Shown here: piece by piece, positions 10,427-43,679 of the stretch
How positions within the stretch are numbered: the first letter of the stretch is position 1
Layout: each line of letters starts with the position of its first letter
Assembly: GCA_963797555.1 (NCBI GenBank)
Contig: CAWCPV010000004.1
Coordinates: 736,001-800,000 of the forward strand
DNA: 64,000 bases
Reading direction: 5' to 3'
From: an uncultured Gammaproteobacteria bacterium
Lineage (GTDB): Bacteria > Pseudomonadota > Gammaproteobacteria > CAWCPV01
Program-made: the position numbers and the translations under genes
Notes under the pieces: generated by a model
Told to the model about the DNA's origin: nothing
The model's input: the letters and a program-made list of their open reading frames with translations, nothing else
Databases searched by the model: none

Positions 10427-10489
10427 GTCTGCTGGCGCATCGCAACACCGCTACACTTCGTTACAGGTAACACCCTTGGGCGGCTTGCT

Positions 10490-26773: not shown

Positions 26774-26929
26774 GCTATCGGCACGCGCAGCCGGTTTCAC
26801 AGGCTCCGAGCACAGCGCTTCCCGGAGGCGGCAAGCTGTGGGAGGAGGTGAGCCGAGGCGAACCCCTGGGCGGAATGCGCTTCACGATGGCCCCGCGGCA
26901 CGGGCAGAAGGCGCGGGAAGTCCGCCCGT

Positions 26930-27276: not shown

Positions 27277-28194
27277 TCAGGAGTTCCTCGCTAGAAGTGC
27301 GGCGACCCGTTTGGCGATGCGGCAGTCCGGGGCGTCGAACCAACTGAACGCGGGCGAGGGGTTCACCTCGAAGCAGAACCATTCGCCGGCAGGTGATTGA
27401 CGCAAGTCGATCCCGGCCACGGGCAGCTCCAGCGAAGCGGCGAGGACACGGCACCGATCGGCCACCTCCACCGGTACATCCGCCTGGCGTCGACGCACTG
27501 CGGCCCCCTGACGCTCGCTGTATCGGTAGTCATCCGCCTCCGATACGAGCCCGCAGACGTATACATCATCACCGACTACGTGCACCCGGTAGTCAACCCC
27601 CCTCACGTACTCCTGGAACTGCGTGGGACAGACGGCTACCGCCTCGAGCTGCGCCCGTTTCTTCGGGGTCAGACGCGACACAATGCTACGGACGCCGCTC
27701 ACTGATTTGTATACGACATCGCCGAGCCGATCACAAAACTCCTCCGCCGCCTTCGGATCGGTTGTGACCAGCGTTTCCGGCACGGCAAAACCGGCTGCGC
27801 GTATCAGTTCCAATTGGTACGGTTTGGAGCTGTTGGAAGCCATCGCACTCATACGATTGACAACCAGCGCCGAGGTCATTTCGCTCCAGAGCCGTATAGC
27901 CTCGTACACCGCGACCGCGTAACGTCCTTCGGCACTCTGGTACCCGGCCTTGGCCACAGCCGGTATGCCGAGTGGATCGTACGGACGCACGTACGCCGCA
28001 GCGACCTTTTCGAGATCCAGACGCAGACCATCCCATTCGACCACGCACGCGACATCGGCGTCGACGCTGAGCTCGACGTTCGTCTCGAGCACCGCGCGCT
28101 GATCAATGAGCACAGCCGTGCGCTCCATGCGTGCCAATTCGTTCCGGACGGAGGCGATCGGGCGATCGCCCGCCAGTCCCCAGAGGAGGATCAT
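27277..28194 (-). CDS. ATP-grasp ligase (RimK / RiPP-maturase-like)
   Basis: SNSSKPYQL, GFAVPETLVTTDP, VVYKSVSG, QFQEYV, DYRVHVVG, AGIDLR, FEVNPSPAF. Confidence 0.88.
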   Translation of the reverse strand: MILLWGLAGDRPIASVRNELARMERTAVLIDQRAVLETNVELSVDADVACVVEWDGLRLDLEKVAAAYVRPYDPLGIPAVAKAGYQSAEGRYAVAVYEAIRLWSEMTSALVVNRMSAMASNSSKPYQLELIRAAGFAVPETLVTTDPKAAEEFCDRLGDVVYKSVSGVRSIVSRLTPKKRAQLEAVAVCPTQFQEYVRGVDYRVHVVGDDVYVCGLVSEADDYRYSERQGAAVRRRQADVPVEVADRCRVLAASLELPVAGIDLRQSPAGEWFCFEVNPSPAFSWFDAPDCRIAKRVAALLARNS

Positions 28195-28985
28195 GCAGTC
28201 TCCATTGCGCTGGCAACCATCCGCACCGGGCGCGCTTCGTGAGGTGCACGTACGAAGTCGCGACACCGGTCGATTAAAGCCTCGGCAACGCTTTCCGCGG
28301 CGACATCGATCCAGAGGCCCGCCTCGAGAAATACCGGTGCCTGCTCTGATCCGCGTTCGAAATACACCCGGAGCAGTTCGACCCCGGCGTCTCGGGCTAA
28401 AGCGATGGCCGCTTGCGCTAACGAAGCCTCGGCGGCACCAGGCGAGCGCCCACCCACCAGGAAAGCACGGTCGCCTACCACATCGACAAAGACCGCATTC
28501 GCGTTGACCCGGCACTCAGCGCCAGACGACCCGCCCGGCGTGTATACGATGCGTTGCCTGACCGGCCGGGTTGCTATCCCGAGCCGTCGTGCCCGTTGTA
28601 CCCACTGGGCAACGCTCCACGAAGGACCTCCCAGATTGGACGGCGACGGACGATTGAGAACGGGGCATTCGAGCGACATGAGCCACGCCACGAGGAACGC
28701 TTGCATCTCGGCCGCGGCATACCTGCGGTCTTCCTCGTGCACATGCGTCAGCTCAGCCTCTCCTACTGCCGGGATACGCGAGATGACCGCGCGGATGTCG
28801 TGGGTTGCGATCACCTGCCCATCGATCACCGCCTCTCCAAGTGCCACTCCGGCCACGTAGCGCCAGCCGGGACGCGACAGGTCCGCGCAGGTGAGGAGCG
28901 CCGCTCGCTCACCCGCGGCGCGCCAATGTTGAACGAGGGCGCGCGCTCCCGCGTCATGCCCGTACGCAAGGACAACGAACATCAT
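28191..28985 (-). CDS. Degenerate ATP-grasp-like partner protein
   Basis: N-terminal pre-ATP-grasp-like region (AVISRIP, LECPVLNRP, VDVVGDR, FLEAG) without canonical KP/QE/EVN motifs; ATGA overlaps with both neighbours. Confidence 0.6.
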   Translation of the reverse strand: MMFVVLAYGHDAGARALVQHWRAAGERAALLTCADLSRPGWRYVAGVALGEAVIDGQVIATHDIRAVISRIPAVGEAELTHVHEEDRRYAAAEMQAFLVAWLMSLECPVLNRPSPSNLGGPSWSVAQWVQRARRLGIATRPVRQRIVYTPGGSSGAECRVNANAVFVDVVGDRAFLVGGRSPGAAEASLAQAAIALARDAGVELLRVYFERGSEQAPVFLEAGLWIDVAAESVAEALIDRCRDFVRAPHEARPVRMVASAMETA

Positions 28986-29686
28986 TCCGTCCGTGGTTCA
29001 TTAAGTGCCCGCTCGCCCAGCATGGGGCGCTCGTCGGGAGCGATGAAGACACGCTGCTCGGAGTACCTCGGCGGTACGACAAACGGCAGGTTCTCCCCGA
29101 GCGGGTAGTCCAGGTGAAAGCCCTCGCTTATGACGCCAGGCCCATGGTGGTCTGCGTCTTTCTTCTCGGCGGCACCCAGACCGTCCTTGGTCGCCTCTTT
29201 CGCATTCTTGTCAGTATCGTCCTTGTCCTCCTTGTGTTCCTTGCTATCTTTGCTGTCCTTCTGATGTTTGGCTTCCTGGTTATCTTTGGTGTCCTTGGTT
29301 TCTTTAGTGTCCTTGGTTTCTTTAGTGTCTTTAGTATCCTTGGTATCCTTGGTGTCCTTCGACGCTTCTTTCTCCTTGCTGTCCTTTTCCTTGGCGTTGA
29401 GAAGGGTGACGATCTCGTTCAAGCAGACACTTAGCTGCGCCCGCAGCGCGTCGATACAGATGAAAGCGCGGCGCACGTTATCGCCGAGCGCATCGAGGTC
29501 CGCTTCGATCTTATGTAATCGCTCGTTGATGCCTCCCTCTTCGGGGGTCTTCCCCGCCTGCACCAGGCTTTCGCCGTCGATCCAGTCGCGGTGCTGGAAC
29601 GTGCGTACGAAGGTGTAAGCGCAATTCGGATCGGTCGCCTGTACACCGTTCACACACGCGATCTCGAGCGGGTTTGCGTCTGCCAT
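28982..29686 (-). CDS. Protein with coiled coil and (T/S)K(D/E) repeat tract; candidate ATP-grasp substrate and tail appendage
   Basis: GGAG RBS before ATG 29686; SKD-(TKD/TKE)x8 tract encoded by 9-bp repeats at ~29283-29363; C-terminal VFIAPDERP. Confidence 0.75.
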   Translation of the reverse strand: MADANPLEIACVNGVQATDPNCAYTFVRTFQHRDWIDGESLVQAGKTPEEGGINERLHKIEADLDALGDNVRRAFICIDALRAQLSVCLNEIVTLLNAKEKDSKEKEASKDTKDTKDTKDTKETKDTKETKDTKDNQEAKHQKDSKDSKEHKEDKDDTDKNAKEATKDGLGAAEKKDADHHGPGVISEGFHLDYPLGENLPFVVPPRYSEQRVFIAPDERPMLGERALNEPRTE

Positions 29687-29705: not shown

Positions 29706-31997
29706 CTACGTCTCGCTAACGCCGCTTGCGCCGACGTGGCGAAGTTGGCGATACGGACGAAATGTGCGCGACAGCCTCGGCGAAAGCGCCTCGGCCGAGC
29801 CGTCGCCGTCCGCGTCGATTTGGTCACGGATCGCCCGGGTGTCGACGATCGTGCCCAGCGGGCGGATCCGTTCGAGCAGGTTCATCAGGAACTCGTATTG
29901 CTCCAGGTTGACGAGCGCTCCGTCGGGAGGCGCAACCCGCAGCTCCAATGGGTCGACCCGTCCACGCGGGTCCGCACTTCCGCGTTTACCGGGTACCGCC
30001 ACAACCACTGCGCACAAGCCGGTCCCGGAGATCCACCCGTTGCGGCTGCCAATCTTGCGTTCGAGCTGCCCTGGTTCGCCGCTCAGCGGCATCAGGTACC
30101 AACGGAAGGAATTCTTTGAACGCGCCGTGAGCAACGTCGCGTCGCCAGGCAGCGTCGTCACCGCCAACACGAGGAGCACGCGGCTGTCGCTGGTCAAAAG
30201 CGGGAGTATCGAGAAGAATCCAGCCTTCTGGAACGCGATGATCAGTGTAAGCAGCGTCTGCGCCGCCGTTGCGTCGTGCGCGATGAGCTTTGCGGCGAGC
30301 GCAGCATCGATTTGTAACGTTGCGACCAGTTCGCTCGGCAACGCCTGCAGCGCAGACTTGGCCCTGTCCACGTCCTGGGCGTCCTTCACCATATGGATGC
30401 GTGCATCGGTCATCGATTGTACCAGCGCGTCGGGTGGCGCCACGGCCAGCCCCCAGGCGGCGCGTTCTTCTGCGCCCGTGAGCAGAATCCATGGCGCGAT
30501 GCCGGCCGCGGCTCGTTCCACGTCTGCATCGAGCAGCGCGAGGACGAGCAGCGCATCGGGTCCCGAATCGAGCGGTGCGTTCCAGCGCGCATCGAGTAGC
30601 GTTTTTCCCGCCGTTACGTTCTTACCGATTACCAGCCCGTGGAATACCAGGTGGGAGACGTAGGTCTTGCTGGCATCGAGCGGATGCACGGTCGGCAGGC
30701 CGCATGGGGCAAGGAGCCAGCGGCCGCGCGGATCCTCGGTCGATGACTTGGGCTGCATTAGAGCGAGGAGCGCGCGGATCTCTGGCGCCGTATCAGGAGC
30801 GATGTTGCCGACCACATGGTTGGCTACCAGCGCGTCCAGCTCCGTCGCCGGCACTGCCTCGACGTCGACACCGAGGCCCAGTTCGTAGCGGCTTCCGCCC
30901 GCATGGTCCTGTGCACGCAGGACGGACCAGCGGCGCGTGCCACCGAGCGCCCGGCGGCACTCGCCCAGGCGATCCAATGCCCGCGCCAGCATGGGCGCGA
31001 TGTGCGCATTAGCGGGAAACTCGAAATTCAGGGCCAGGCGGGCGCGTAAGGCGTTCTCCTCGAGACGCACGTCGCTGGGGAGTAGGCGCGTGTCGGGGAC
31101 GTCGACGCCGGGCTGGAGCAGGAAAGCTTGACGCGCGTAATCCAAGAACGCGGTCCGCGGCGTGTCGTCTGGAGACGAGACCAGGCGCACGGCAACGAGG
31201 AACTCGGTGTCCGGCTCGGCGATGGTCAAGCGGTGCGTTACGCCCATCCGCGACAGAAGGCCCGCGTTGCCGCCGGTGCCCGGCCCGTTGATCACGCCCT
31301 CGACTGCGCGGCGCGACGAGCGCAAGAACGGGCGGTAGATGCTGAGGCGCGCGCGGAACGACGCGTCGGCCTCGCCTTGCGGTACGATGGTGGGCGCGCG
31401 CAGCGTCGCATCCCACACCAGGCGTGCGTTGAAACGCGGTACGCCCAACTCCGCACCAAGGCGGTCGAGCGCGGCGCCGCGTGCTTCGGCAAGTCGACGG
31501 GCGGCATAGATCTCGTTCGCCTCGCGTCTGAGGCGCATCTTCTCCGAGCCGATCACATAGAGCAGGCGCGCCAGGTTTCCCTCGACGACGCGCAGATCGA
31601 AGAGATCGCCCATTGCCGCAGACTCGCCTCCGACGCCCGGATCGAGGAACACGTCGAATGGCGTGGCGAAGTCGAGATCCATCGAGGCATCACCAGGGCG
31701 GTAGGCTAGAACTGACGCCCCCGCCTCCGTGTACGGCGCGAAACGCACGACCGCCGGCTCCACGGCCTCGCCGCTCGATTGGGTGATGTGGACGGTGCAG
31801 GCGAGTGCTTCAGCGCCGACCGCTCCCTTTGTCGAGACGAGGAGCAGCGGCAGCCTTGCCTTCCAGTCGACCCGGGCGGCGCCTGCCGCGTCGACGACCA
31901 GCTTGGTCTCGACCGCGCCTCCAGTGAACGGTCCGCTCAGGTGAGCGAACATGCTCTCGTGAGCCGCCGATCGATTGGGGTCCGGATGCAGGCTCAT
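29706..31997 (-). CDS. Putative baseplate wedge / tail protein I-like protein
   Basis: ARGAALDRLGAELGVPR...EADASFRARL resembles phage baseplate wedge proteins; directly follows baseplate J. Confidence 0.6.
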   Translation of the reverse strand: MSLHPDPNRSAAHESMFAHLSGPFTGGAVETKLVVDAAGAARVDWKARLPLLLVSTKGAVGAEALACTVHITQSSGEAVEPAVVRFAPYTEAGASVLAYRPGDASMDLDFATPFDVFLDPGVGGESAAMGDLFDLRVVEGNLARLLYVIGSEKMRLRREANEIYAARRLAEARGAALDRLGAELGVPRFNARLVWDATLRAPTIVPQGEADASFRARLSIYRPFLRSSRRAVEGVINGPGTGGNAGLLSRMGVTHRLTIAEPDTEFLVAVRLVSSPDDTPRTAFLDYARQAFLLQPGVDVPDTRLLPSDVRLEENALRARLALNFEFPANAHIAPMLARALDRLGECRRALGGTRRWSVLRAQDHAGGSRYELGLGVDVEAVPATELDALVANHVVGNIAPDTAPEIRALLALMQPKSSTEDPRGRWLLAPCGLPTVHPLDASKTYVSHLVFHGLVIGKNVTAGKTLLDARWNAPLDSGPDALLVLALLDADVERAAAGIAPWILLTGAEERAAWGLAVAPPDALVQSMTDARIHMVKDAQDVDRAKSALQALPSELVATLQIDAALAAKLIAHDATAAQTLLTLIIAFQKAGFFSILPLLTSDSRVLLVLAVTTLPGDATLLTARSKNSFRWYLMPLSGEPGQLERKIGSRNGWISGTGLCAVVVAVPGKRGSADPRGRVDPLELRVAPPDGALVNLEQYEFLMNLLERIRPLGTIVDTRAIRDQIDADGDGSAEALSPRLSRTFRPYRQLRHVGASGVSET

Positions 31998-32005
31998 CGC
32001 GTCAC

Positions 32006-33433
32006 CTAGACGATCTTCATGAGGGCGTCGTCGTCGGCGAACGTGGCGATCTCGCTCACCCCCACAGTGAGGTTCTCGCCACAGGGCAACTCACCAAAGT
32101 CGCGCCCGCCGAGCTGTTGCACTTCACCGAAGCGCGGCGGCGACCGCAGCAACCGAAGGTTGCGTACGTCCGCGAGCCCGGATTCGCCCATGAGCGCATA
32201 GGTCACCTCGGAGAAGCGTACCGGTTCGCCGAAGTCGAGCGTGTCGACATAGCGCTGGACCCGATCCAGGAGCGCCTTCTTGAAGTTCTTCGCCGCGTCG
32301 GAATCGTTGATGACCCCGGTCGACGTGCGCGGCAGCGGGATCCCGGTGACCACCAGGTCGGCGGCGATCCCGACGAACACGCGGTGCGCCTCCTGCACAC
32401 GCGGGTAGATGCCGATCGGACGCAGGTCCTCGATCACGGACTCGACGGAGACGCCTACGCCGGCCGGCCCATCGAAGATGGCTGCGTCAGTGAGGGCTAC
32501 CAGTACGGTGAAGAAGTTGGGCGACACGATGTCGCGCTCGGCGCCGAACACGCGCTCGATGAAGTTGAAGGTGCCGAAGATGGGGAGGTCGATGTCGAGC
32601 CCGCCGCCGTCGCGCACGACCACGCGCCGCACCCCCGGGACCAGGGATGCCGCCACGCGGATAGCCTCGACCGACCAGGTGGAGCGCGGGGCGCGCAATA
32701 GCAAGTCACGGTAGCGCCTGTCGGGCCAGCGCAGCTCCCCTCCGGCTAGGGGACGCGTATGCTCGATGGCGACCACCGATTCGAGTGAACCCGTCCCAGC
32801 GGCGGTGATCAGTGCGTCGAGGGTATCGGAGTCGTCGCGGTTCCAGAAGGCGATCTTCTGCGGGTTACCCCCGCCTGCGCTCACGTTCGGGTCGAGGTTG
32901 TGCTCGGGGCCGGGATAGAACGCCTCCACGGCCACATCCTTGGGCCCGCCCGTCCGGGTGAGGAGCACACTTTCGGTGGTAGCCACATGGTGGTTTCCGC
33001 TGGTATAGAGCCGGGCGCCGCGCGGGATCAAAAGCTCGTCGATCCCAGCGGGCAGCGCGGGCGTCAGGCGGATGGTCCCTTGCCCCTGCAAAAAGGGCCG
33101 CGGCAACCCCAGCTCCTCGCCCAGGCGGCTCAGCGCTTCTCCCCGCGCCGAAGAGACGAACTGGTTGTCATACACGGCAGCCAGCGCCGCCCAGGTGCGC
33201 GCGTCTTCCAGCGCCGTGACCTCGAGGATCTTGCGGATTGCCGAGCCCGAGGTGAGGTCGACATCCTTGCCGAACACCGTGCGTGCGAGAGCCAGCTTCT
33301 CCGCTAGGAGGCGCGCGAACGGCTTGGGGACGAACCCTCCGTCGGTCAGGCCGTATCCCTGAGCGCTCGTGGTGCGGGCCAGCTCCTCGTCGACTGCAAG
33401 GATGTCCGCAGTGTTGACCGTACCGTTAGCCAT
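32006..33433 (-). CDS. Baseplate J/gp47-like protein
   Basis: YGLTDGGFVPK, SARGEALSRLGEELGLPR, IPRGARL, GGELRWPDRRYR, YVDTLDFGEPV. Confidence 0.82.
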   Translation of the reverse strand: MANGTVNTADILAVDEELARTTSAQGYGLTDGGFVPKPFARLLAEKLALARTVFGKDVDLTSGSAIRKILEVTALEDARTWAALAAVYDNQFVSSARGEALSRLGEELGLPRPFLQGQGTIRLTPALPAGIDELLIPRGARLYTSGNHHVATTESVLLTRTGGPKDVAVEAFYPGPEHNLDPNVSAGGGNPQKIAFWNRDDSDTLDALITAAGTGSLESVVAIEHTRPLAGGELRWPDRRYRDLLLRAPRSTWSVEAIRVAASLVPGVRRVVVRDGGGLDIDLPIFGTFNFIERVFGAERDIVSPNFFTVLVALTDAAIFDGPAGVGVSVESVIEDLRPIGIYPRVQEAHRVFVGIAADLVVTGIPLPRTSTGVINDSDAAKNFKKALLDRVQRYVDTLDFGEPVRFSEVTYALMGESGLADVRNLRLLRSPPRFGEVQQLGGRDFGELPCGENLTVGVSEIATFADDDALMKIV

Positions 33434-33908
33434 TCGGCACCACCTTCCCGAGATCGAGCGTCGCAGTATCGCCCGTGACCGTCTCGAACACCACCTTCAC
33501 CTCCAGCTCGCGGATGTTGGAACCGGGGCTGGTCAGCCGCCCGTCCTGCAACTGCACATCGACGATGCGCCGCACCCGCGGGTCCTTCTGCAGCAGCGTG
33601 ATCACGGCGATGCGGATGCGCTCCTGCACCATGATCGGGACCGTCTCCTCGGCAATGGCGTTGAGCCCGTCGAAGCCGAAATCCACGTTGAACACATCAC
33701 CCGTGAGAGGTGTGGTGAGGGCCACGGTGAGCGCCTGCCCGAGGTTCTCCATTCCCTCGGTCAAGGCGAAGTCGCGCGTCATGCCGTCGCCGCTCGGCGC
33801 GAGCACCAGATCGCGCCCGAGGTCCAGCGCGCCCTGCGTGGGCGCGCACAGGAGGCCGAAGCCAAGCAGCCTGCGCCGCAGAATGGCACGTTCGCGTTCG
33901 GCATCCAT
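33426..33908 (-). CDS. GPW/gp25-like baseplate protein (sheath initiator)
   Basis: NLGQALTVALTTPLTGDVFNVDFG...LQKDPRVRRIVDV. Confidence 0.8.
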   Translation of the reverse strand: MDAERERAILRRRLLGFGLLCAPTQGALDLGRDLVLAPSGDGMTRDFALTEGMENLGQALTVALTTPLTGDVFNVDFGFDGLNAIAEETVPIMVQERIRIAVITLLQKDPRVRRIVDVQLQDGRLTSPGSNIRELEVKVVFETVTGDTATLDLGKVVPNG

Positions 33909-35825
33909 CAGCTGCCCCTCCCTCTGACGTCCATCACACCGTCGGTCTCGACTATCACGTTCCCCTTGGAGTCGAAGGTGATGTCCTCTCCCGCCACGAA
34001 GTGCAGCTTCTTCTTGGATTCAATGGTGATGTTCCCGTCCTGATCGATGACGATCTTGGACCCACTGGCGTGTTCAATGCTCACATGTTCATTGGCGGCG
34101 GCGGGGCGCGTGCCAGCCCGTTGCAGCTTGTCCGCACCCACGCGCACGGTGAACTTGCCCACCTCGATAACGCGGTTGCCGTCGGCGTCGATCAGGTCGT
34201 TGGTGGCCTTGCCGCCCGGCTCGTTCAGCTTCTTGTCGTCGGCGACCTGTTGGCGATCGGCCTCAGGAATGGCGGCCGGCAGGACCAGCCAGTAGTCACC
34301 GGGATTGGACGCGGGCGCCTGGCCCCGCTCCCACAGCGCCCCGATGTCGATAAGGTCGTCGTCGTCGCCGTTGCGGTGGGCAAGGAGCACCCGCATCCCC
34401 GGGTAGCGCGGCAGGACCAGACCGAACTTGCCCCAGGCGAACGGCGAGGCGTACGGTGCGGCATTGAAGTGACTTCCCCGGTCATCGAAGGCGAGTCGCG
34501 CGGCCGCGTACGGATAGCCGTCGTCGGCCACGAGGCCGCGCCAGAGCTTCTCGGTCTGTGCCGGGAGCTGTCCCCCGTTGGCGTTGGTGGCGCGCACCTG
34601 GCCCACGTCGAGGCGCCGTCCGCCCCCTTTGGCGGCGTGTTGACGGACCAGGCCCGCGAGCTCCCCTTCGGGGCTGTCGTCGTGCTGCGCCGGCTCGGGC
34701 ATGGCCGGCCCTTTGGGCGACCCGTGCTCAAACCAGCCTTCAAATTTCCCCGGGGGTCCGGAAGGGATGGCGACGCCGCGAAGCAGGGTTATGAAGGCGG
34801 ACTCGCGGGACAGACGGTGGTTGACGCCGCGCACGTACATTCTGGTCTTGGTGGCCGCGAGGACCTCGGGCACACCGAGTGCGAAGCTCACCGCCGACCC
34901 CAGCTCATCGGTCTCGTCGGGAGGACGGTTGAACTCGACGAAGTCGCCCGGTTTGATGTCCGGACGCCCGCGCAGGGTCAATTCGAAGACATCGCGCTTG
35001 CCGGCATCCGGGTTGCCCGGGTCTTCGGGTTCCTGGCCGCGACTCTCGATCTGGATGAGCCCTTCGTCGGCGCCGATCTGGAACGTCTTGCCGACCAGCC
35101 GCAGCCGGTCCGGGCCCATGTACAGCAGTCCATCGCGGATGAGGTACATCCCGAGGCCGAACTGCCCGGTTTGCTGCTCCATGGCCGCACCAAGCTCGCG
35201 CAGGCGCTCTACGCCTATCTCCCCTTCGGACCAGCTCCGCTCGTCGTTGTTCAACCTCGGAGGAGGGCGTCTTTTCCTGCGACAGGGAGTTCACCCTGAG
35301 CAAATGAGTGATTTGCGCCGCCGCCTGCAGGCTGTCGGCCTCCGTCCCCATCTGGGGAATAGGCTTCAGCAGCTTGTCGTAGACCAGGTCGCGCGCCTCG
35401 ATCACGACCTCGTAGCGACGCGCCCCCGCGCGCCGCTTGAGCGATGACACGCGCAACACTGCGACCAACGAGTCGTCGGGCGGCTCGTCGCCCTGCAGGG
35501 TGTCGGTGAGCCCGGCGAGGTCCACCAAGTAGCCCACCGGCCCTGCATCGCGCCAATAGAGGCGAAGGTTCGCCACCAGGTTCGCGCGCGCCTTGTAGAG
35601 CTTCGCATAGTCCTCGCTGCTCATCCCCTCGATGACGAAGGTGTAGCTCCCGCCGTCCAGGGTCCCCGGCAGGGTGGCGTCGATCGAGGCGTAATAATCC
35701 GACGAGCTAAGCGCCGCAACGCGCTCATTCTTGATATCCTCGGGCTTGACGTCCAAACCCTGGGACACCTCGCGAAACTCGATGTGCCACGCCGCGTGGA
35801 CGCCGACCTTGGGGATCGCGCTCAC
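33908..35825 (-). CDS. VgrG-like baseplate hub + spike (frameshift near 35255-35280)
   Basis: Hub-like LTLRGRPDIKPGD, OB-fold-like GLVLPRYPGMRVLLAHRNGD, beta-helix repeats SKIVIDQDGNITIESKK; N-terminal part in ORF 34905-36311 from GTG 35825. Confidence 0.75.
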
Positions 35826-36418
35826 GGCAAGTAGCCTCCACGCGGGCTGATTGTCGCGCCCGGAATACCGATGGCCGACTGCGAGAGCGCCGTGTTGCGG
35901 GCCGCCACGTAGGGGTCGATGGGTGCGAGCGGGAACGCGCTCGTCCCCCTGTCGACACGCCGCCAAGCCACCTCCACGAACGAGCCATAGTTGCCCGGTC
36001 CGCGCACGCAGCCGGCGTGGAGCAGCCAGCCGGCGACGTACAGGTCGATCACCGTGCGGCCGCCGTCCCCGTCCGGGATCACGCGCGACAGGCCCGCGGC
36101 CAGCGGGATCGCCGCGAGCGTCGCGCGCCCCTGGCGGAGGAGCAAGCGGATGGCTGGACGCTCCAGCGGATCGGCGCCGCGGGGCGCGCTGTGTACCTGA
36201 GTCTCGTCGATGGCCGCGCTCACCACGGCTTCCGGATCGGCCTCGCGCCAGAACGCCGCGAACCCTGTGGGAACCAAGAGTACCAGGCTCAGATCCGATT
36301 CGAGCGGCCACTGAAAGGGGACGCCGCGCGTGAGTTCCTGCCGCGACCGGGTGAAGCCGGCCGGGATCGCGATCGGTTCCTCGGGGGTGAGGAACCGATC
36401 CATCGGCATTGGCGTCAT
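35822..36418 (-). CDS. Hypothetical tail/baseplate-associated protein
   Basis: Co-oriented; stop overlaps the hub gene start (GTGA); start uncertain. Confidence 0.55.
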   Translation of the reverse strand: MTPMPMDRFLTPEEPIAIPAGFTRSRQELTRGVPFQWPLESDLSLVLLVPTGFAAFWREADPEAVVSAAIDETQVHSAPRGADPLERPAIRLLLRQGRATLAAIPLAAGLSRVIPDGDGGRTVIDLYVAGWLLHAGCVRGPGNYGSFVEVAWRRVDRGTSAFPLAPIDPYVAARNTALSQSAIGIPGATISPRGGYLP

Positions 36419-36434
36419 GACCGGGCCCACGGCG

Positions 36435-36977
36435 TCACCTCGCGAAGTCCGCGAGCGCTCCCACGGCCAGCGGGGCGGCGTCGAGGACCTTGGCGAGAAC
36501 GCCGGGGCGTGGCACGTGCACCAGCGATATCGACACATCGAGCACGTCGCGCCGGGCCGCCGAGGCAGTGAACGTCAGCGACTGGATCTGCATGTCGGTG
36601 CGGATCGTCATCGAAGTGACCAGCGTCAAGCCCGACACCGCGCCGCCGGTGATGCGTTCGATGGCCGTGCCGCGCTTGCTCAGATCGGCCATGGTCTCGA
36701 GCATGAACTTGAAGGTGAAGCGCTGCGGGCCGACGAGCAGTCCGCTCAAGCTGACGGTGTCGTCATGCGCCGCCACGATCATCCGTTCTTGCGATGGCCC
36801 GATCGGCGGCAGGTGGTACGACTCGGAGAGAGACATGGACGTGACCGCAAACAAAGGCACGAAGAGCGGGGTGACAATCGCGGGCACGGGCGTGAGGGCT
36901 TGAACCGCAAGCTGGACCGGGTCCGCCAGCACGGCCGAGGGCACCGCCGTATTCAGGAAACTGCTCTCAAGTGGCAT
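36435..36977 (-). CDS. Putative tube-initiator / Dit-like protein
   Basis: Beta-rich pattern SLSESYHLP...TVSLSGLL...MQIQSLTF...LDVSISLVHV resembling tube-fold baseplate proteins. Confidence 0.55.
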   Translation of the reverse strand: MPLESSFLNTAVPSAVLADPVQLAVQALTPVPAIVTPLFVPLFAVTSMSLSESYHLPPIGPSQERMIVAAHDDTVSLSGLLVGPQRFTFKFMLETMADLSKRGTAIERITGGAVSGLTLVTSMTIRTDMQIQSLTFTASAARRDVLDVSISLVHVPRPGVLAKVLDAAPLAVGALADFAR

Positions 36978-37023
36978 CACATGCCGCCTTTCGCCCGCGT
37001 TACCCTGCACCCATGGGATTGCC

Positions 37024-37386
37024 TCACTCCGCCTTCAACCGATCGTGCACGCCCGCGCCCGCCGCGATCGTCCCCGGCGGAGTCCCATTCGTGGTTCCGC
37101 CTGGGGGATCGATGACGACGAACTCGCCATCGACCTTAAGCTTGGTAGCTTTACCCGACGTTACTTCCGACACGGCGGTGCACTTCACCTGGCCCGCATC
37201 CTCCTTGTTCTGGCAGGCTGAAATGGTCGCGGTCGCGACGAGAATGTTCGCCGTAGTCAGGACCTTATGGCCGTCCACCTTCAGCCTGCCGACGCCGCTC
37301 TTGGACAGCGTGCCCCCGTGCGGAGCCGGCTGCTCGGGCGTGGCCACGCACTTCAACACCGTGTCCTCAGTGAGCACCTTACCCAT
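37024..37386 (-). CDS. PAAR-like spike tip protein
   Basis: LKC...PHGG, LKVDGHKV, C...KC, LKVDGEFV; Cys/His metal-ligand pattern; 120 aa. Confidence 0.78.
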   Translation of the reverse strand: MGKVLTEDTVLKCVATPEQPAPHGGTLSKSGVGRLKVDGHKVLTTANILVATATISACQNKEDAGQVKCTAVSEVTSGKATKLKVDGEFVVIDPPGGTTNGTPPGTIAAGAGVHDRLKAE

Positions 37387-37783
37387 CAGCGTTACCTCTT
37401 TCGAGCCATTCGATGATCAGACGTGGCAGTGGGCCGAGGAGTGGGGCCTCGGCCGGCCACTTCCCCAGCTGCACTTGAATTACTTGCCCGCCGTTGGGCT
37501 TGCGCCAGTAGCTGGTGCTCATGGCGTACCGGTCGCCTCCGGCGTCCTCGCCGATCCGGATGGCCCCGCGAAAACCTCGAGGTGTCCACGTTCCCTCGAC
37601 GGGACGCAGCTCCGACACGCCATAGAGGGTAATGTCCGCTGCGGGGATCGAGAGCCCATCCGTGAGCTCGAGTAGCGCACTCGGTTGATTGGGGAGGCCC
37701 ACGCCGGCCCGGTCTTCGCCGTTGTAGCTCCGTAGGAGAGCAGAGCAGCAGGGTCTCGCCGTATAGCTGGTGATCGCCATCAC
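37379..37783 (-). CDS. SMI1/KNR4 (SUKH)-like immunity protein
   Basis: LP...LLELTDG...LYGVSEL...AIRIGEDAGGDRYA...LIIEWLE pattern; directly downstream of the toxin-like gene. Confidence 0.65.
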   Translation of the reverse strand: MMAITSYTARPCCSALLRSYNGEDRAGVGLPNQPSALLELTDGLSIPAADITLYGVSELRPVEGTWTPRGFRGAIRIGEDAGGDRYAMSTSYWRKPNGGQVIQVQLGKWPAEAPLLGPLPRLIIEWLERGNADG

Positions 37784-37792
37784 GCTTCCTCG

Positions 37793-40700
37793 CTAGTTGA
37801 AACTCACAAACGGTAGCGTCGCCTCGAAGGCGTTCCGGTACTCGGTGAGTTCGGCCTCGGTGATATCGCCGCGCTTGAGGGCCCGCTTGATCACGGCGTG
37901 TTCGAGCGCCGGTCGCAGCCGCCCCTTCACATCCTCAATGACCTGCCGCATCACGGCCGGATCGTTGACATCCGAGATCTTGAGCCGGCGTGCCGCCGCC
38001 GCGGCGATTTCCTGGCTGCGAATGCGCCAGTCGATCGACTCAAACGCGCGAGAACTCCCAGTCAACATCCGGCGCTCCGTCACCTCGATGACGATGTTGG
38101 TCGCCAGCTGGCGGACCGCGTCGTCTCCGAGGCTGCGCAGCCGATAGATTTCCTTCACCTCGACGCGCCGAGTCAGGGCTGCACTGGGACGGAACACGCG
38201 GAAGTCCGACACGCGCAACTCTCCACCGGCAGACAGACCCGGGTCTTCGAACGCCAAGTGGGCGTCCGGGAAGCGGTCCAGTTCCTTATTGGCTGCGAGC
38301 AGGACGCCAACGACAGCCTTGTACTTCTGAGGTACGTTGCCGGTGAGATCCGGGATAAGTCTGCCCAGATCTAAGGAGCGCGGCGCCAGCCGCTGCAATG
38401 ACTCGAAGATCCCCACGACTTGCTGTGGTTCGAAGTTGTGAAAGACGCGTAGCGCCTTGCTGGCGGTCGTACCCGATCGCAGCTCGAAGAAGATCTCCAG
38501 TCCCTCGTTCGCCTGCGGCGAGAAGCTCGCCAACGTGCGCAACGCCTTCTGCACGTCCATGAACCACTCGCCGGTTTCGATGGGAGAAAGCAGCTTGGCC
38601 AGCGTCGAGGCGTTGCCGCCGCGCTCGAGAAAGCGGCTGAATCCCTCCATTTCGGCGGTGTGCTGTGGTCCCAGGAAGCGGCCGATCCCCCGCAAAAGCC
38701 GCTGTGCCGTGCGCTGGCTGCGCTGGGCGACGGTCGTCAGTTGTGCCACGAACTTCGCGGTGTCGGGCTGTCCCTGGATCACGTGCAGTGCGCGGCGCTG
38801 CGCTTTAACGTCGTATCCGCCGACGATGGCGTCAATCGATGGGGGAGGCACGCTCGGGCGGCCGGGCAGCAGCAACAGAGGCCGGTCCATACCCGCGCCG
38901 GTCAACCGGAGGACGCCACCGCCCGTATCGGTCACCTCATAGCCTGCCCGACGGAATCGCACCATCATCTGGTCTGCGCTTTGCGCAGGCACATATGGGT
39001 TGTATTCGAACGCCTCCGGTCCGACGGCGACCAACTCGTGGACCACTTCCGATGGCGCAGGGCGCGTCCGCGCCGCCCCTGCCCCTGCGGAGGGTGGCTG
39101 CGAGTTGCGGACGATCTCGGCGTACTGCGCGACTATCTTCGCCAAGGCACCCACACGCGAGCGGCTGAGGCCCAGTGAGGCCAAGGCTTCGTCGGAAAAG
39201 TTCTTGCCCGCCATACGCCCGAGCACCTCTTCGAGCTCTGGCAGGATTGTCAGCAAGCGTTTCTTCAGCGATGCGTGTTGTGCGTCGTCTGGCCCACTCG
39301 GACCGATTCGGCGAATCTCGTCGAAAATGGCAGCGCCTTCCTGGCGCACGCGATCGAACCGGGCCAAGAGTTCGTCCTGGATATTCAGCGCACGCAACTG
39401 CTGGCGTAGGCGCGAGCCACCGAGGAGCGCACCGGTCGCCGACAGCACCACGCTGGAGAACATGAATGTCTCCATGTCCTCCGGCATGTGGCCGGTTTGG
39501 ACAAGCGTCAAGCCCAGATTGATGCCGGTGCCCACCGCCGCGTCGGCGCCCAACACGATGCTGAGCTGCGCTAGATCGCGCCCAGGGGCAAGGTAGCGTC
39601 CAAATGCCACGAAGCGGACGTTAAACCATCGGAATAGGAACCCGAAGGCCGCATTTTCACTGAATGAGACCAGCACGTCTCGGGCGCTCACCTCCTCGTG
39701 CAGAGCGACGACCTGTCCGAGCGTCGTCACAGCCGTAAACGTTCCGGCTCCAATCAGCGTGGTCTCGGTGGCGGTCAAGCCCAACGCGCCTTCGGCGATC
39801 CCTGCGACGCCCCAGGTCACGACCATCGCGACAACGGTGATTCCAAGGCGAACCCAGAACTTCCGTTTGTTGCGTCTGACTTCTTCCTCTGCCTTGTCGT
39901 TTATTTCTTTGACCAGCTCATCGAGGCGCTGCTGCCACCCCTTCATCTTGTCTGGCAGGTTGGCGTAATCAGGGTGTTCAAGCTCGCGCTTGACCCCAGC
40001 GATGATGGGGTCGGTACGCCGCCACCAACTGACGTGATCGTCGACATCACCGATGTCGTGATCGATTGCCCAGTCCGGCAACTGCAGCGCGCCGTGCCAG
40101 AACGTCATCAGGGATCGCTTTACTTCGAGCTCGCCGAGCTGTTGCCGCAGCTTGCCGGCTAACACGAGATAGGGCTCACCACGGCCGTGCTTGCCCGCGT
40201 TTGCCACTTCGCTCCCCAGTGCGCCGACCTGCTGTAGGAGCTGATTGAGTTTCGTGTTGAACTTGGTGTATGCGTTGTCGTGGCCGACCCCCATCACAAA
40301 GATGGGGATCAACGTCACCTGGTAGGTCAGCTCTTTGATTCCCGCTGCGACATGCTCCAGCCGCTTGTCGGCGGCGAGCCCCTGCCAATCCGCATAAAAT
40401 GCGTCCGCGTCTTTCAGCAGTTTGTCGATCGGATCCTTCCGGAACGGCGATGCGCGCAACGCATCGATGAGCACGTCCAGATAGCGCGAGCGAGCCTGCA
40501 ACAGGATCTGTACCTCCTCCAGGTTGTCAGCCTCCTGTCCTGCACTGAGTCGATACAGCAGCAGCCAATTGTCAATCTCGCGCACCTTGGCCAGTACCGC
40601 CACCAAGACCTGGTAGTATGCGAGTAACTCTTCCTGTGGCACGAACGTGCTTATGCCTTGCTTGCCGCTGGCGAGCGCCGCCAGCAGCGCGGGATAGCGC

Positions 40701-41689
40701 CACAGATCGATGCGATTCAGTGCCTTGAAGATCACATCCTCGGTCTTCTCTTCCGCGGTGATCAGGTAGCCCTGCAGATGCAGTCGCGCAGTGGCGATCG
40801 GATCGAGGAGCGCGACGATACGCCGGAAGCCTGGAATGCGGCGCTCCAATTCGCCCGTGAGCCACGCGGCTTCGGGCAACTCTCCGGCCAAATGGATTGC
40901 GTCGGCGGCAATGTCGAGAGACTGGGCGGCTTCTTGGATCGCTTGCTTGTCTTTATCGATACGCCTGATCGCACCTTCGGAGAATTCGTAAACACGTGCG
41001 ATCGCCGCAGCGCTCCCTGTCGAGGCTTCCAGCAGCAGCTTGCGGAACTTCGCTGGGTTGCGCTTGGCAAACGCGCGCAGGATTTCCACGTTCAGGGGAT
41101 CGGCGGGATCCCGCCCCGGTCTCGTCCGTGTTCCGCTCAAGATTCGCTGGAACAGACTGCCGTCGTCTTTGACAAGTTGCGCGACCGTCGTGCGAATCAG
41201 TGTGAGCTGTTCGTCGGAGAAATCGCCAGGTTGCCGGGCACGCTTGACGATCAGGAGCTTCGGCGTAAGGTCCTTTTTCGGCTGATAGCTGGGAATGAGG
41301 TAGCCGTCGCCGTCGAGCGTCCATCGATGCTCGTCGACCCGTTCGCGAATCTCGTCCGGCAGTACAGGGGGCGCCGTGACCGCGGCGCGTACGAAGTCGT
41401 ACAGGTGTGCACTGGAGGCGGCACGTGAGAAGGTCTCTTTCACCAGCGCTTCGATATCGGCGCGGACCGCCGCCGATACCCGGTCGAGCTCGCCACCGGT
41501 CCAGACGACTTTGGGTTCCCAGAGACGGATAGTCGCATATCCGCCGCGCCGCGCGAGGACGACATCCCGCGAGCTGGCGAGAGCCCGTCCGGCGGCAGAG
41601 GCGAGAGCTTCTGCGATCACGTCGCGCCGCTTCGCGAGGCCCGTCGCGTTGACCCGGATGCGGGTTGGAATGATCACGCTCACGGGCAT
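37793..41689 (-). CDS. Large putative effector/toxin with TM segments and a C-terminal PD-(D/E)xK-like domain
   Basis: Helical N-half; Gly/Ala-rich hydrophobic block FWVRLGITVVAMVVTWGVAG...; C-terminal FED...VSDFRV...VEVKEI. Confidence 0.6.
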   Translation of the reverse strand: MPVSVIIPTRIRVNATGLAKRRDVIAEALASAAGRALASSRDVVLARRGGYATIRLWEPKVVWTGGELDRVSAAVRADIEALVKETFSRAASSAHLYDFVRAAVTAPPVLPDEIRERVDEHRWTLDGDGYLIPSYQPKKDLTPKLLIVKRARQPGDFSDEQLTLIRTTVAQLVKDDGSLFQRILSGTRTRPGRDPADPLNVEILRAFAKRNPAKFRKLLLEASTGSAAAIARVYEFSEGAIRRIDKDKQAIQEAAQSLDIAADAIHLAGELPEAAWLTGELERRIPGFRRIVALLDPIATARLHLQGYLITAEEKTEDVIFKALNRIDLWRYPALLAALASGKQGISTFVPQEELLAYYQVLVAVLAKVREIDNWLLLYRLSAGQEADNLEEVQILLQARSRYLDVLIDALRASPFRKDPIDKLLKDADAFYADWQGLAADKRLEHVAAGIKELTYQVTLIPIFVMGVGHDNAYTKFNTKLNQLLQQVGALGSEVANAGKHGRGEPYLVLAGKLRQQLGELEVKRSLMTFWHGALQLPDWAIDHDIGDVDDHVSWWRRTDPIIAGVKRELEHPDYANLPDKMKGWQQRLDELVKEINDKAEEEVRRNKRKFWVRLGITVVAMVVTWGVAGIAEGALGLTATETTLIGAGTFTAVTTLGQVVALHEEVSARDVLVSFSENAAFGFLFRWFNVRFVAFGRYLAPGRDLAQLSIVLGADAAVGTGINLGLTLVQTGHMPEDMETFMFSSVVLSATGALLGGSRLRQQLRALNIQDELLARFDRVRQEGAAIFDEIRRIGPSGPDDAQHASLKKRLLTILPELEEVLGRMAGKNFSDEALASLGLSRSRVGALAKIVAQYAEIVRNSQPPSAGAGAARTRPAPSEVVHELVAVGPEAFEYNPYVPAQSADQMMVRFRRAGYEVTDTGGGVLRLTGAGMDRPLLLLPGRPSVPPPSIDAIVGGYDVKAQRRALHVIQGQPDTAKFVAQLTTVAQRSQRTAQRLLRGIGRFLGPQHTAEMEGFSRFLERGGNASTLAKLLSPIETGEWFMDVQKALRTLASFSPQANEGLEIFFELRSGTTASKALRVFHNFEPQQVVGIFESLQRLAPRSLDLGRLIPDLTGNVPQKYKAVVGVLLAANKELDRFPDAHLAFEDPGLSAGGELRVSDFRVFRPSAALTRRVEVKEIYRLRSLGDDAVRQLATNIVIEVTERRMLTGSSRAFESIDWRIRSQEIAAAAARRLKISDVNDPAVMRQVIEDVKGRLRPALEHAVIKRALKRGDITEAELTEYRNAFEATLPFVSFN

Positions 41690-41766
41690 GAGTCAGGCGC
41701 CTACCAGCACGACGTTCCACATGGAGACCTGTCTACCGCCCTCGCGGCGCTTGACCGTCAACACAT

Positions 41767-42033
41767 TTAGGTCTCGCGTAGGCGCCGCGACAGCCGCTCG
41801 TAGACGTAGCGGGCGATTGCATCCATGTCAACGTCCCCGCCCTCCCCGCGCACCTCGATCTCGACGGGGAAGTGATAATGGATCACCGTGCGCGCATCGT
41901 CGGCCACGAACTCGGCCTGCGCCTCGCTCCCGGCGGCCGGGAGGACCACTTCCCCCTCGTGCACCAGCGCGATGCCGGTCTCGAGGATGCGTTTGGCTCC
42001 CGTCTCCTCACGGTCTTCAGGCTCTCTCGCCAT
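41767..42033 (-). CDS. Small protein resembling a tape-measure C-terminal motif
   Basis: GIALVHEGEVVLP motif; follows the tube gene. Confidence 0.55.
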   Translation of the reverse strand: MAREPEDREETGAKRILETGIALVHEGEVVLPAAGSEAQAEFVADDARTVIHYHFPVEIEVRGEGGDVDMDAIARYVYERLSRRLRET

Positions 42034-42044
42034 GTGCTAGCCCC

Positions 42045-42485
42045 TCATGGGATCTCCACTTTGACGTTGTCCTTGCCGTCGGTGGTGGCGTGCATGCTGA
42101 AGCCCGAGAAGGTGGCGGTGGGCGCACCGCTCGGCGATGCTGAGGTGGGCGTAGCGCTGGTGATCATGCAGTCGCCCAACACGACGGAGTTGAACGACCA
42201 GTCGTCGCCGATCTTCTCCTGCAGGGTGATGTCGAAGCGCTTCCCCTGCATCGCCAGCGCGGTCAGACGCGCAGCCACATCCCCAATGGCCTTGACGGTG
42301 ATGGAGAAAGTGATCGACTGGGGCGAGAACACCGCCCCCACGTGGGTGCGCTCGATCGAATGGATAGGCTCTATCGCGAGGGAGAAAGAGGGGGAGAACG
42401 AGTCGATCGGGGTGATATCGACCGTCGTCCCGTTCTCGGTGTAGCTCACCGCGAGGCGAGTCCTCCAGTCCAGATTGTCTGCCAT
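42045..42485 (-). CDS. Putative tail tube protein
   Basis: 146 aa, beta-rich, GGAGG RBS, directly downstream of the sheath gene. Confidence 0.7.
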   Translation of the reverse strand: MADNLDWRTRLAVSYTENGTTVDITPIDSFSPSFSLAIEPIHSIERTHVGAVFSPQSITFSITVKAIGDVAARLTALAMQGKRFDITLQEKIGDDWSFNSVVLGDCMITSATPTSASPSGAPTATFSGFSMHATTDGKDNVKVEIP

Positions 42486-42497
42486 GGCTCAACCCTC

Positions 42498-43664
42498 CTA
42501 GAACTTCGGCTGCAGCGTGACCCGCAGGCGATGCACGGCGGGGCCGTAGGTAACGCTCACGAACATATCCACGCTGCGGTTGGCGCGCGCGTTGGTGACC
42601 AGCGCCCGCTCCGTGGCGGTCCAGTTGCTCTCGGGGATCGAGAGGATGTTGAGCACCGGTATATCGATGGTGTAGTCATCGATGGTCGCGGCACGCTTGA
42701 GCGGACCCATGATGCCGTCGACACGGGTCTTGACCCCGACGAGGCCCGGCTTGGTGATGCGTGCATCGCCAATTGCGCCGATGAGACCGGCCTTGAGTCG
42801 GAAGTCGATGTCGTCGAGAGTGCGCACGATGTCGACGTAAAGCAGGTTGGCGTCGGTGGTAAACAGCCGTCCTTCGGCGAAGAAGAAGCCGCCTCCCACG
42901 ATCAGCGCCGGCTGGATGATGGGGACGATGCCGAACTCGGAGAGCGCCCTGATCTCCGAGGGGCTGTATTGCTCCGCGACCGGGATGGCGATCCCGCGGA
43001 TCCGTTTCAACACGATGGAGGTCGATGGCGCGTATCCGGCGACCGCGGCCATTGCGGCGCTGGCGGTGTCGGCTTGCGTCCCGGCGTCGTTCTTCGCGCC
43101 TCGCGCGGCGACCATGAGGACCCGGCTCACGCTGCTCTCCAACGTGGGTGTACCGGTGAGCCCCGTGTGCACGTCGCTGGCGTAGGTGGGCGACTTGCCG
43201 ATGGTCGGGTCCACCATCATCACCGCGATGCGCTTCTGCCCCGCGGCCGACATATTCTCGGCGTGGGTTTTCAGCTTGCTCAAGTTGGTCTTGTCGGTGA
43301 CATTGGCCAGCGACACGAAGGTGACGTCGTCCGCGGCCTCGAGGGCGGCGAGCCCGGCGTCGAAGTCGGCGTCCGCCAGCTTGACGCCATAGATCTTCGA
43401 GGGCCGCGGGTCCTGCAAGAGGGCCAACCGCAGCGATTCGTACAGGGGGTTGGGGGTCACGGTGTTGCTGCTGACTGCGGCGAACAGCGCGGCGGCGTCG
43501 GCGAGGGTGTCGACCACGAGCGGCACGTTGACCGCTGCGGTGCCGCCCCCTCCCGTCGCGCCCACGATAGCGATAACGCCTGGCGCGCGCTGCGCCACCG
43601 GGGCGAGCTGCGAGGTGTCGATGAACACCTCGATGAACGGATACGCTGCAGGTACGCTTGCCAT
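42498..43664 (-). CDS. Contractile tail sheath protein
   Basis: APGVIAIVG at the N-terminus; C-terminal sheath-like LYVDIVRTLDDI...IDDYTI...VSVTYGPAVHRLRVTL. Confidence 0.82.
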   Translation of the reverse strand: MASVPAAYPFIEVFIDTSQLAPVAQRAPGVIAIVGATGGGGTAAVNVPLVVDTLADAAALFAAVSSNTVTPNPLYESLRLALLQDPRPSKIYGVKLADADFDAGLAALEAADDVTFVSLANVTDKTNLSKLKTHAENMSAAGQKRIAVMMVDPTIGKSPTYASDVHTGLTGTPTLESSVSRVLMVAARGAKNDAGTQADTASAAMAAVAGYAPSTSIVLKRIRGIAIPVAEQYSPSEIRALSEFGIVPIIQPALIVGGGFFFAEGRLFTTDANLLYVDIVRTLDDIDFRLKAGLIGAIGDARITKPGLVGVKTRVDGIMGPLKRAATIDDYTIDIPVLNILSIPESNWTATERALVTNARANRSVDMFVSVTYGPAVHRLRVTLQPKF

Positions 43665-43679
43665 GTCGGAGTTCTCCCG

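Follow-up and report, generated by a model that had tools for sequence, protein, structure and literature searches.

The 64,000-nucleotide stretch analysed here (the window; contig CAWCPV010000004.1, positions 736,001 to 800,000, of assembly GCA_963797555.1, from an uncultured gammaproteobacterium) carries on its minus strand a three-gene operon directly after the baseplate genes of a phage-tail-like cluster. The first gene encodes a protein (P0001) that occupies the position of a tail fibre and combines a long tract rich in lysine, aspartate and glutamate with a C-terminal motif of the general form RxFIxPxERPxxG; the second and third encode a degenerate ATP-grasp paralogue (P0002) and an intact ATP-grasp enzyme of the graspetide ligase type (P0003). 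Comparison across genomes lends good support to the view that P0001 is the substrate of the P0002/P0003 pair, in agreement with the initial annotation of this DNA, which had proposed a graspetide-type substrate at the tail-fibre position. On balance, we favour the reading that P0001 is the fibre-position protein of a divergent phage-tail-like contractile injection system and that its tract would be stapled into Lys-Asp/Glu isopeptides by P0003 together with P0002.

The products for which graspetide ligases are known are small cyclic peptides. The evidence presented here points to whole proteins as substrates, marked by a portable C-terminal cassette that consists of a K/D/E tract and an FIxxEERPxVG docking motif. 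A RiPP (a peptide made on the ribosome and then modified after translation) in the strict sense is released and exported; family scans detected no protease or transporter gene in the P0001-P0003 operon, as the initial annotation had also noted, and P0001 consists of 234 amino acids, with other putative substrates reaching 1635.

Co-occurrence of the C-terminal motif and the enzyme pair

We gathered 50 genome loci via the P0002 family, taking open reading frames (ORFs) as stop-to-stop frames. These loci span Acidobacteriota, Actinomycetota, Cyanobacteriota, Myxococcota, Nitrospirota, Pseudomonadota, Verrucomicrobiota, Chloroflexota and archaea, and a homologue of P0003 adjoins P0002 in every one of them. 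In 45 of the 50, the gene immediately upstream of P0002 encodes the motif F-I-x3-4-[E/D/Q]-R-P, usually followed by x-V-G, at a distance of 4-70 residues from the gene end and with a K/D/E-rich tract before it. Apart from these two features, the upstream proteins are unrelated to each other: their length ranges from 139 to 1635 amino acids, and they include DUF6519, Kelch/galactose-oxidase-like, TIG, Big_2, papain-like and unassigned types. When a loose form of the motif pattern was used as a control, 54 matches were found among 2372 six-frame ORFs, namely, the 45 upstream genes, one tandem copy in a single locus (L033) and 8 chance matches; the latter are FL, FV or FI forms, none of which has FI...RPxVG.

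The locus with the tandem copy (L033, 4592-6064) contains two small substrate genes in a row, each with a K/D/E tract and FIQPxERPxVG, in front of one enzyme pair. In three loci from Aphanothece and Synechococcus (L049, L050 and L052), the enzyme pair is retained and the upstream protein, which lacks the motif, ends in ...DSF(F/V)(S/T)PEP; this ending may be a different docking element.

The genome to which the window belongs has a single copy of P0001 and a second module of the same type (L004, 9359-13523, contig C3). In this module, a 686-amino-acid Kelch protein has a K/E tract and the ending WKELKWEIKEVKE...FISKKERPDVG, and behind it come paralogues of P0002 and P0003, of which the ligase is 49% identical to P0003. 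The second module adjoins a group II intron reverse transcriptase fragment and transposase-like ORFs.

The family of P0001 itself allows the proteins with and without the cassette to be compared. A metagenome scan with this family produced 42 loci, in 34 of which the gene follows a homologue of the 763-amino-acid baseplate gene of the window; most of the remaining 8 begin right at a contig end or no more than a few hundred bases from one. The tract and the motif are present in 18 of the 42 loci, and in 17 of these 18 they are followed by P0002 and then, where the contig goes on, by P0003; in the 18th, the contig stops 30 nucleotides past the gene. The other 24 loci have in common with P0001 only the N-terminal ~90 residues (aa ~15-105), which are joined to a different remainder of 280-760 amino acids. 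Neither enzyme was found in any of these 24 loci, 9 of which include at least 1.9 kb of downstream sequence. Therefore, the tract-motif cassette and the enzyme pair come and go together (17/18 versus 0/24) on a constant scaffold. Because the motif lies upstream of the pair in 45 of the 50 loci, on unrelated proteins, and strictly tracks the pair in the fibre family, these comparisons support the proposal, made in the initial annotation, that it behaves as a recognition element. A Vicinamibacterales locus (L005) and a Kofleriaceae locus (L006) likewise combine P0001 and the enzyme pair with the same baseplate genes. In the alternative fibre-position proteins (L069-L073, L077-L092 and L094), the remainder often ends in a helix-hairpin-helix-like region, with weak matches to HHH_5 and TfoX_C.

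Architecture of P0001

The P0001 gene occupies positions 28982..29686 on the minus strand, stop codon included (codons 28985-29686). An AGGAG sequence is located 8 nucleotides before its ATG, and the stop codon of the upstream 763-amino-acid gene is 19 nucleotides before this ATG. The three genes of the operon appear to be translationally coupled, given that the P0001 TGA and the P0002 ATG overlap as ATGA at 28982-28985, and the P0002 TGA and the P0003 ATG overlap in the same manner at 28191-28194; both overlaps had been recognized in the initial annotation.

Homologue alignments delineate a conserved N-terminal domain at aa 15-52 (29531..29644, minus strand), with the signature F.RTF.H.DW.DG..VQAG.TP.E.G.N, and the conservation runs on into the adjacent helix as RFH.IEADLDALG. 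We propose that this domain is a baseplate anchor. It is followed by a long, coiled-coil-like helix at aa 53-111 (29354..29530, minus strand), assigned with DSSP on an AlphaFold2 model in which the block-mean predicted local distance difference test (pLDDT) score is 79-90 over residues 51-100. This helix is the only confident part of the model (mean pLDDT 57), and corresponds to the coiled coil that had been placed before the tract. Beyond it, the model contains only the tract, which is predicted to be disordered, and the motif, with no distal receptor-binding domain, and a Foldseek search of the model against the PDB returned no match at E <= 0.001. The Pfam matches of P0001 to BUD22, DDHD and CIS_TMP were rejected, being below the cut-off and located on the low-complexity tract.

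The tract, the proposed core, spans 82 residues (aa 97-178; 29153..29398, minus strand) and is built with a K-[D/E]-x period of three. The repeat SKD-TKD-TKD-TKD-TKE-TKD-TKE-TKD-TKD reported initially is present exactly, inside this tract, and Tandem Repeats Finder detects a 9-bp period with 8.2 copies at 29286-29359. The tract comprises 24 Lys, 26 Asp/Glu, 10 Thr and 4 Ser residues. Its KDTKD units are overlapping Kxxx[D/E] motifs, and the spacing of the charged residues is far from that in shuffled tracts: a Lys is followed by Asp or Glu at i+1 21 times, at i+4 17 times and at i+7 15 times, compared to 7.1-7.6 +/- 2 in 2000 shuffles of the same residues, and two Lys are three positions apart 15 times, compared to a mean of 6.6 and a maximum of 13 in 5000 shuffles.

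The C-terminal motif, RVFIAPDERPMLGERA (aa 212-227; 29006..29053, minus strand), includes the VFIAPDERP sequence (aa 213-221) that had been spotted after the tract, and is proposed to be a docking, or 'follower', element in view of its invariance and its recurrence upstream of P0002. The 75 homologues of P0001 have in common the N-terminal domain, the helix, the tract and R.FI.PDERP.VGERAL. The initial annotation had recommended that conservation of the motif be checked in homologues, and this check turned out positive, with F214, I215, R220, P221 and G224 invariant across the alignment. The RPxxG core of the motif reads RPxVG in most homologues and RPMLG in P0001. By eye, this core bears a resemblance, and nothing beyond a resemblance, to the RPFG of graspimiditide leaders, the tetrapeptide by which, above all, the ligase ThfB is reported to recognise them (PMC13003496). 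A search of public sequencing runs with the locus listed no RNA run, and one soil DNA run with 0.06 of the words.

The ligase and its degenerate partner

P0003 (305 amino acids; 27277..28194 including the stop, codons 27280-28194, minus strand) is closest to the graspetide macrocyclases rather than to other ATP-grasp enzymes, as judged by sequence models. Among the NCBIfam models, it matches TIGR04187 (1.1e-35), MvdD (3.6e-22) and MvdC (1.5e-18) ahead of rimK_fam (1.3e-15). Among PDB sequences, the order is PsnB (6e-23), PruB (9bou), CdnC, AMdnB, MdnB and MdnC (1.5e-10), and then RimK (1e-6). Six residues, K163, R203, H205, D263, E276 and N278, are invariant in 24 members of the P0003 family; on the basis of the ATP-grasp fold in general, we take these to be the nucleotide-binding, metal-binding and catalytic residues of an ATP-grasp enzyme.

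The relationship of P0002 (264 amino acids; 28191..28985 including the stop, codons 28194-28985, minus strand) to these enzymes is detectable at the level of structure and of family profiles. Pfam and NCBIfam scans gave no family-model match for this protein, BLASTP revealed no similarity to P0003, alignment of the P0002 family with the single P0003 sequence using hhalign gave no match (probability 0.6), and the best that the P0002-family profile retrieved among PDB sequences was RimK/LysX at E 0.16-0.4. The AlphaFold2 model of P0002 has a pLDDT of 90.2, and its best Foldseek matches are MdnC, PsnB, PruB, MdnB, AMdnB and CdnC (E ~1e-9, TM ~0.6, where TM is the template modelling score); alignment of the P0002 and P0003 families with each other yields a probability of 88.7 and an E-value of 2.6e-6. 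In the profile alignment, P0002 is devoid of the segments of P0003 that bear invariant residues, namely, the lysine-containing YKS stretch, the DDYRY loop and the FEVN site. Because P0002 has the fold of a graspetide ligase and is missing these segments, we classify it as a degenerate ATP-grasp paralogue, that is, a pseudo-ligase partner of P0003; the pairing of a complete with a degenerate ATP-grasp gene that was seen initially is borne out. The P0002 family is large, with 2483 representative clusters at E <= 1e-3. A complex prediction from alignments for P0003, P0002 and residues 190-234 of P0001 scored 0.83, compared to 0.69 for the control, which is no verdict, neither for nor against binding.

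Predicted chemistry of the tract

The spacing statistics were extended to 41 non-redundant tracts. Pairs of Lys with a downstream Asp or Glu are enriched at i+1 (271 versus 116 +/- 8) and at i+4 (186 versus 108 +/- 7), and depleted at i+2 (33 versus 114). Among the homologues of P0001, the Lys positions of the tract are invariant and Asp/Glu is conserved, and the third position of the repeat varies (T/S/G/N/A/V/H). In 3 of the 41 tracts (L021, L038 and L048), Thr and Ser are missing altogether. The initial annotation had listed Thr/Ser, Lys and Asp/Glu as the reactive residues of the tract; Lys and Asp/Glu hold up, in that they are conserved, and Thr/Ser do not, being variable and missing from several tracts. 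Lys and Asp/Glu are constant and Thr/Ser are not, which argues for isopeptides rather than esters. Accepting this line of evidence, Lys-Asp/Glu isopeptides appear to be the likeliest chemistry, and esters are unlikely to be the common one.

For P0001 in particular, Thr/Ser-Asp/Glu lactones in the TKD/TKE units, as in plesiocin and microviridin, would find reactive groups in the 10 Thr and 4 Ser of the tract. Moreover, the best solved relative of P0003 is PsnB, an enzyme of plesiocin biosynthesis that forms esters. We nonetheless consider ester formation distinctly improbable, given the variation of the third repeat position next to an invariant Lys and the existence of tracts without a single Thr or Ser.

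Under the favoured reading of isopeptide stapling, the N-terminal domain would anchor P0001 to the baseplate, followed by the helical stalk and the disordered K-[D/E]-x tract. The RxFIxPxERPxxG motif would recruit a heteromer of the active ligase P0003 and the catalytically dead P0002. P0003 would then phosphorylate Asp/Glu side chains with ATP and join them to Lys side chains of the tract. The likeliest products would be serial intrachain isopeptide rings between Lys(i) and Asp/Glu(i+4), comparable to those made by CorB on the KxxxD repeats of corallotide. No peptide would be released; the product would remain in the particle as a covalently stapled, protease-resistant segment of the fibre.

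The bonds could also form between chains, the version put forward in the initial annotation. In this scheme, the stalk would align three chains such that a Lys of one is joined to an Asp/Glu of its neighbour, to yield a trimer stable in sodium dodecyl sulfate (SDS) or a link to the baseplate. The long helix immediately before the tract and the fibre position of P0001 are compatible with this arrangement, and an engineered version of the graspetide ligase ThfB is reported to yield cross-linked protein dimers (PMC13003496). However, the natural ligases CorB, MyxF and ThfB are reported to make intrachain rings (PMC13097080, PMC12848669, PMC13003496), and many substrates of the same enzyme pair (Kelch, papain-like protease and TIG proteins) have no obvious trimerising stalk, so that we regard inter-chain linkage as unlikely.

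Several observations weigh against intrachain stapling of P0001 as a whole or in part. The support for modification of P0001 is wholly comparative. The motif is missing upstream of the pair in 5 of the 50 loci (L019, L049, L050, L052 and L053). The 123 bits that P0003 reaches with the graspetide NCBIfam models are far under their curated cut-offs (350 bits), so that P0003 is a divergent relative, and Pfam assigns it to RimK (PF08443) only, at 29.1 bits versus a gathering score of 21. In the tracts, i+1 is more enriched than i+4, which leaves room for other ring patterns. The tract is predicted to be disordered and, accordingly, the models back no defined stapled structure. Finally, a charged, low-complexity tract could serve as a spacer, with its composition conserved for other reasons.

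The Pfam assignment would be at home in a scheme where P0003 adds Glu or other residues to P0001 or another protein, at the C-terminus or on side chains, without forming rings; P0001 and its close homologues do end in Glu. RimK, the ribosomal protein S6 glutamate ligase, belongs to the same ATP-grasp superfamily as P0003, with the PF08443 match above the cut-off. However, the RimK models and structures are weaker matches to P0003 than the graspetide ligases throughout, and score well under them. Furthermore, the acidic C-terminus is conserved only in close homologues of P0001, the residues beyond the motif varying in more distant ones, and the features that are conserved, an internal motif and a Lys-rich tract, differ from what such an activity would act upon. 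A RimK-like role therefore appears very unlikely.

The spacer proposal can be put in a stronger form, in which the tract is a mere charged spacer and the motif brings the ligase pair to the particle for other cargo, for particle assembly or for regulation. The low complexity and predicted disorder of the tract are compatible with such a role. Against it stand the joint presence of the tract and the motif on unrelated proteins beside the pair in 45 of the 50 loci, the conservation of K and D/E, and the non-random spacing of these residues, and we assign to this possibility an even lower likelihood than to RimK-like activity.

Contractile injection context

As stated in the initial annotation, P0001 comes after wedge genes: its gene lies directly behind them, at the fibre position. 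Immediately upstream is a probable baseplate wedge protein of 763 amino acids in the position of P2 gpI (29706..31997, minus strand), with weak PHROG baseplate matches (6e-4 and 3e-3). It is preceded by a gpJ/gp6-like wedge protein of 475 amino acids (32006..33433, minus strand; phrog_6, 2.5e-35) and a gp25/gpW-like baseplate protein of 160 amino acids (33426..33908, minus strand; phrog_975, 2.8e-6, and phrog_43, 1.9e-3). The rest of the cluster (33908..44627, minus strand) encodes proteins of 448 amino acids (spike position), 238, 191 and 130 amino acids, 1298 amino acids (tape-measure position), 146 amino acids (tube position), 388 amino acids (sheath-like) and 315 amino acids. It was delineated from weak family matches (sheath, 9e-3 and 1e-3; Dit-like, 2.6e-3; DUF2345, 0.05), gene order and homologues in other loci (L060, L069, L079, L087 and L093). 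The gene order upstream of P0001 resembles that of P2-like tails. No head genes are present beside the cluster, past which xseA is found at 45277-46788. By these sequence comparisons, the cluster is a divergent phage-tail-like contractile system, the assignments of sheath and tube being weak. The 1298-amino-acid ORF at the tape-measure position (37793-41689, minus strand) has no family match and falls under the threshold of G+C content at third codon positions (0.78) that its neighbours pass.

The association with contractile systems extends beyond the window. In 21 of the 50 P0002 loci, homologues of Pfam-verified Baseplate_J or Tail_P2_I proteins are encoded directly upstream of the substrate, or proteins with the eCIS_core domain, named for the extracellular contractile injection system (eCIS), are encoded downstream. 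With the addition of L031, at least 22 of the 50 loci are of the contractile-injection type, a minimum estimate given the short length of several contigs. In most of these, the substrate gene is directly after the baseplate genes. DUF6519, reported to be eBAP5, a baseplate anchor of eCIS tail fibres (PMC12923769), was identified in 15 of the substrates (L009, L010, L012, L014, L016, L017, L020, L022, L026, L029, L030, L031, L032, L036 and L043). The N-terminal domain of P0001 shows no similarity to DUF6519 in Pfam or hhalign comparisons. In a quick maximum-likelihood tree, the fibre-linked ligases fall into several supported clades that are interspersed with other ligases.

In the Acidobacteriota eCIS loci L009, L012, L014, L016, L017, L018, L020, L022 and L036, the ligase is followed, at ~8650-10950, by a gene for a protein of ~720-760 amino acids that is homologous to the fused Methyltransf_24/family-2 glycosyltransferase of L017; the fusion is confirmed by Pfam in L009, L017 and L018. 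An eCIS_core-domain protein is encoded next after this gene in L012, L020, L022 and L036. The location of a methyltransferase/glycosyltransferase gene beside the ligase suggests further modification of the fibre.

Taken beyond P0001, these observations raise the tentative possibility, to which we attach somewhat less than even credence, that the maturation of eCIS tail fibres, those with DUF6519/eBAP5 included, widely involves a step overlooked so far, in which a ligase/pseudo-ligase pair staples the fibre through isopeptides. If so, a 'RiPP' enzyme family with substrates reported to be unpredictable would have as its natural substrate a ribosomally made protein with a structural role in a nanomachine, and the stapled Lys/Asp/Glu segment would represent a new covalently reinforced or target-binding fibre tip. 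Were this confirmed, enzymatic cross-linking would join the steps by which phage-tail-like nanomachines are assembled, and an orphan group of enzymes would be explained. Furthermore, the cassette, being compact and genetically encoded, could be used as a tag for stapling proteins by isopeptides at specific sites.

Relation to characterized and predicted systems

One precedent is the corallotide system (graspetide group 15), in which the 22-kDa protein CorA has five KxxxD repeats and CorB, a TIGR04187-type ligase, is reported to join Lys9 to Asp13 (i, i+4) in them by isopeptides (PMC13097080). The combination of such a ligase with a large repeat substrate is shared with P0001 and P0003, for which TIGR04187 is the best model. 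The two systems differ: in CorA, the five KIVAD-type repeats are described as spaced and accompanied by an N-terminal helical region, and the CorA cluster as including a 2-oxoglutarate oxygenase and a beta-lactamase (PMC13097080). As described there, the corallotide system is without a pseudo-ligase, a C-terminal FIxPxERP motif and an injection-system context, all three of which are found at the P0001 locus. Two further reports are relevant to the proposed arrangement. MyxF is reported to make lactams in (KxxE)n repeats, and MyxD2 to be inactive alone (PMC12848669). ThfB is reported to modify its core even when the leader is shifted to the C-terminal side of the core (PMC13003496), a placement that corresponds to that of the proposed recognition element of P0001.

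The ligase/pseudo-ligase pair is of a known kind. In the classification of Makarova et al. 2022 (PMC8939145), ATP-grasp 'branch 8' is described as having a truncated, inactive ATP-grasp partner, and P0002/P0003 fit this branch, membership being judged by the printed description only. According to the same source, the precursors of branch 8 could not be predicted, and peptidases were proposed to supply the peptides. Unlike in this proposal, the P0001 locus has no peptidase, and the candidate substrate is the tail of the upstream protein itself. The second match is graspetide 'group 32' (Carter, Ramesh, Saad, Mubarik & Mitchell 2026, PMC13097080), of which the main text mentions only diverse neighbouring proteases. 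The rows for this group list two synthetases per cluster and precursors predicted with RODEO that include K/D/E-repeat peptides ending in ...FIRPEERPAVGERAL. Many entries given as 'precursors' are small ORFs unrelated to these, or even pieces of the truncated ATP-grasp protein, and one fragment in the list resembles the stalk of P0001 (...LGDNVAFLF...KDSKEGKETKEGKE...RPFITSDERPVVG). The tie of P0002/P0003 to group 32 is through the motif-bearing precursor rows alone. As these sources present them, branch 8 and group 32 are both uncharacterised.

The fibre side of the comparison is provided by the eCIS catalogue in PMC12923769. Like the tail fibres with eBAP1-5 described there, P0001 comes after baseplate genes and has an N-terminal module common to alternative fibre-position proteins. 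Unlike the fibres with eBAP5, it has an N-terminus unrelated to DUF6519 and no receptor-binding domain.

A link between such a ligase pair and the fibres of injection machines is absent from the literature we searched. The main text of PMC8939145 contains none of the terms baseplate, contractile, eCIS, injection, DUF4157 or fiber; that of PMC13097080 contains none of baseplate, contractile, eCIS, injection, phage or fiber; and that of PMC12923769 contains neither 'ATP-grasp' nor 'grasp'. No paper came up in literature searches that combined ATP-grasp with either contractile injection systems or eCIS, and combining ATP-grasp with baseplate and sheath, or with isopeptide and tail fiber, returned unrelated papers only. 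For graspetide with tail, no phage-tail context appeared in the title or the start of the abstract among the matches listed, and the motif string FIRPEERP was absent from the searched literature.

Genes downstream of the operon

The operon ends next to a remnant of an ISKra4-family transposase, in which no more than positions 343-421 of the 422-position profile are left, and a tRNA-Leu(CAA) gene (26177-27230). Their location beside the fibre/ligase operon may mark an insertion hot spot. Farther downstream, at 23509-26086 on the minus strand, is an alpha-glucan phosphorylase gene that is either a pseudogene with at least four frameshifts or the product of assembly errors. This gene is broken across five successive frames, with positions 1-150, 160-275, 282-410, 411-542 and 544-599 of TIGR02094 each matched in an ORF of their own.

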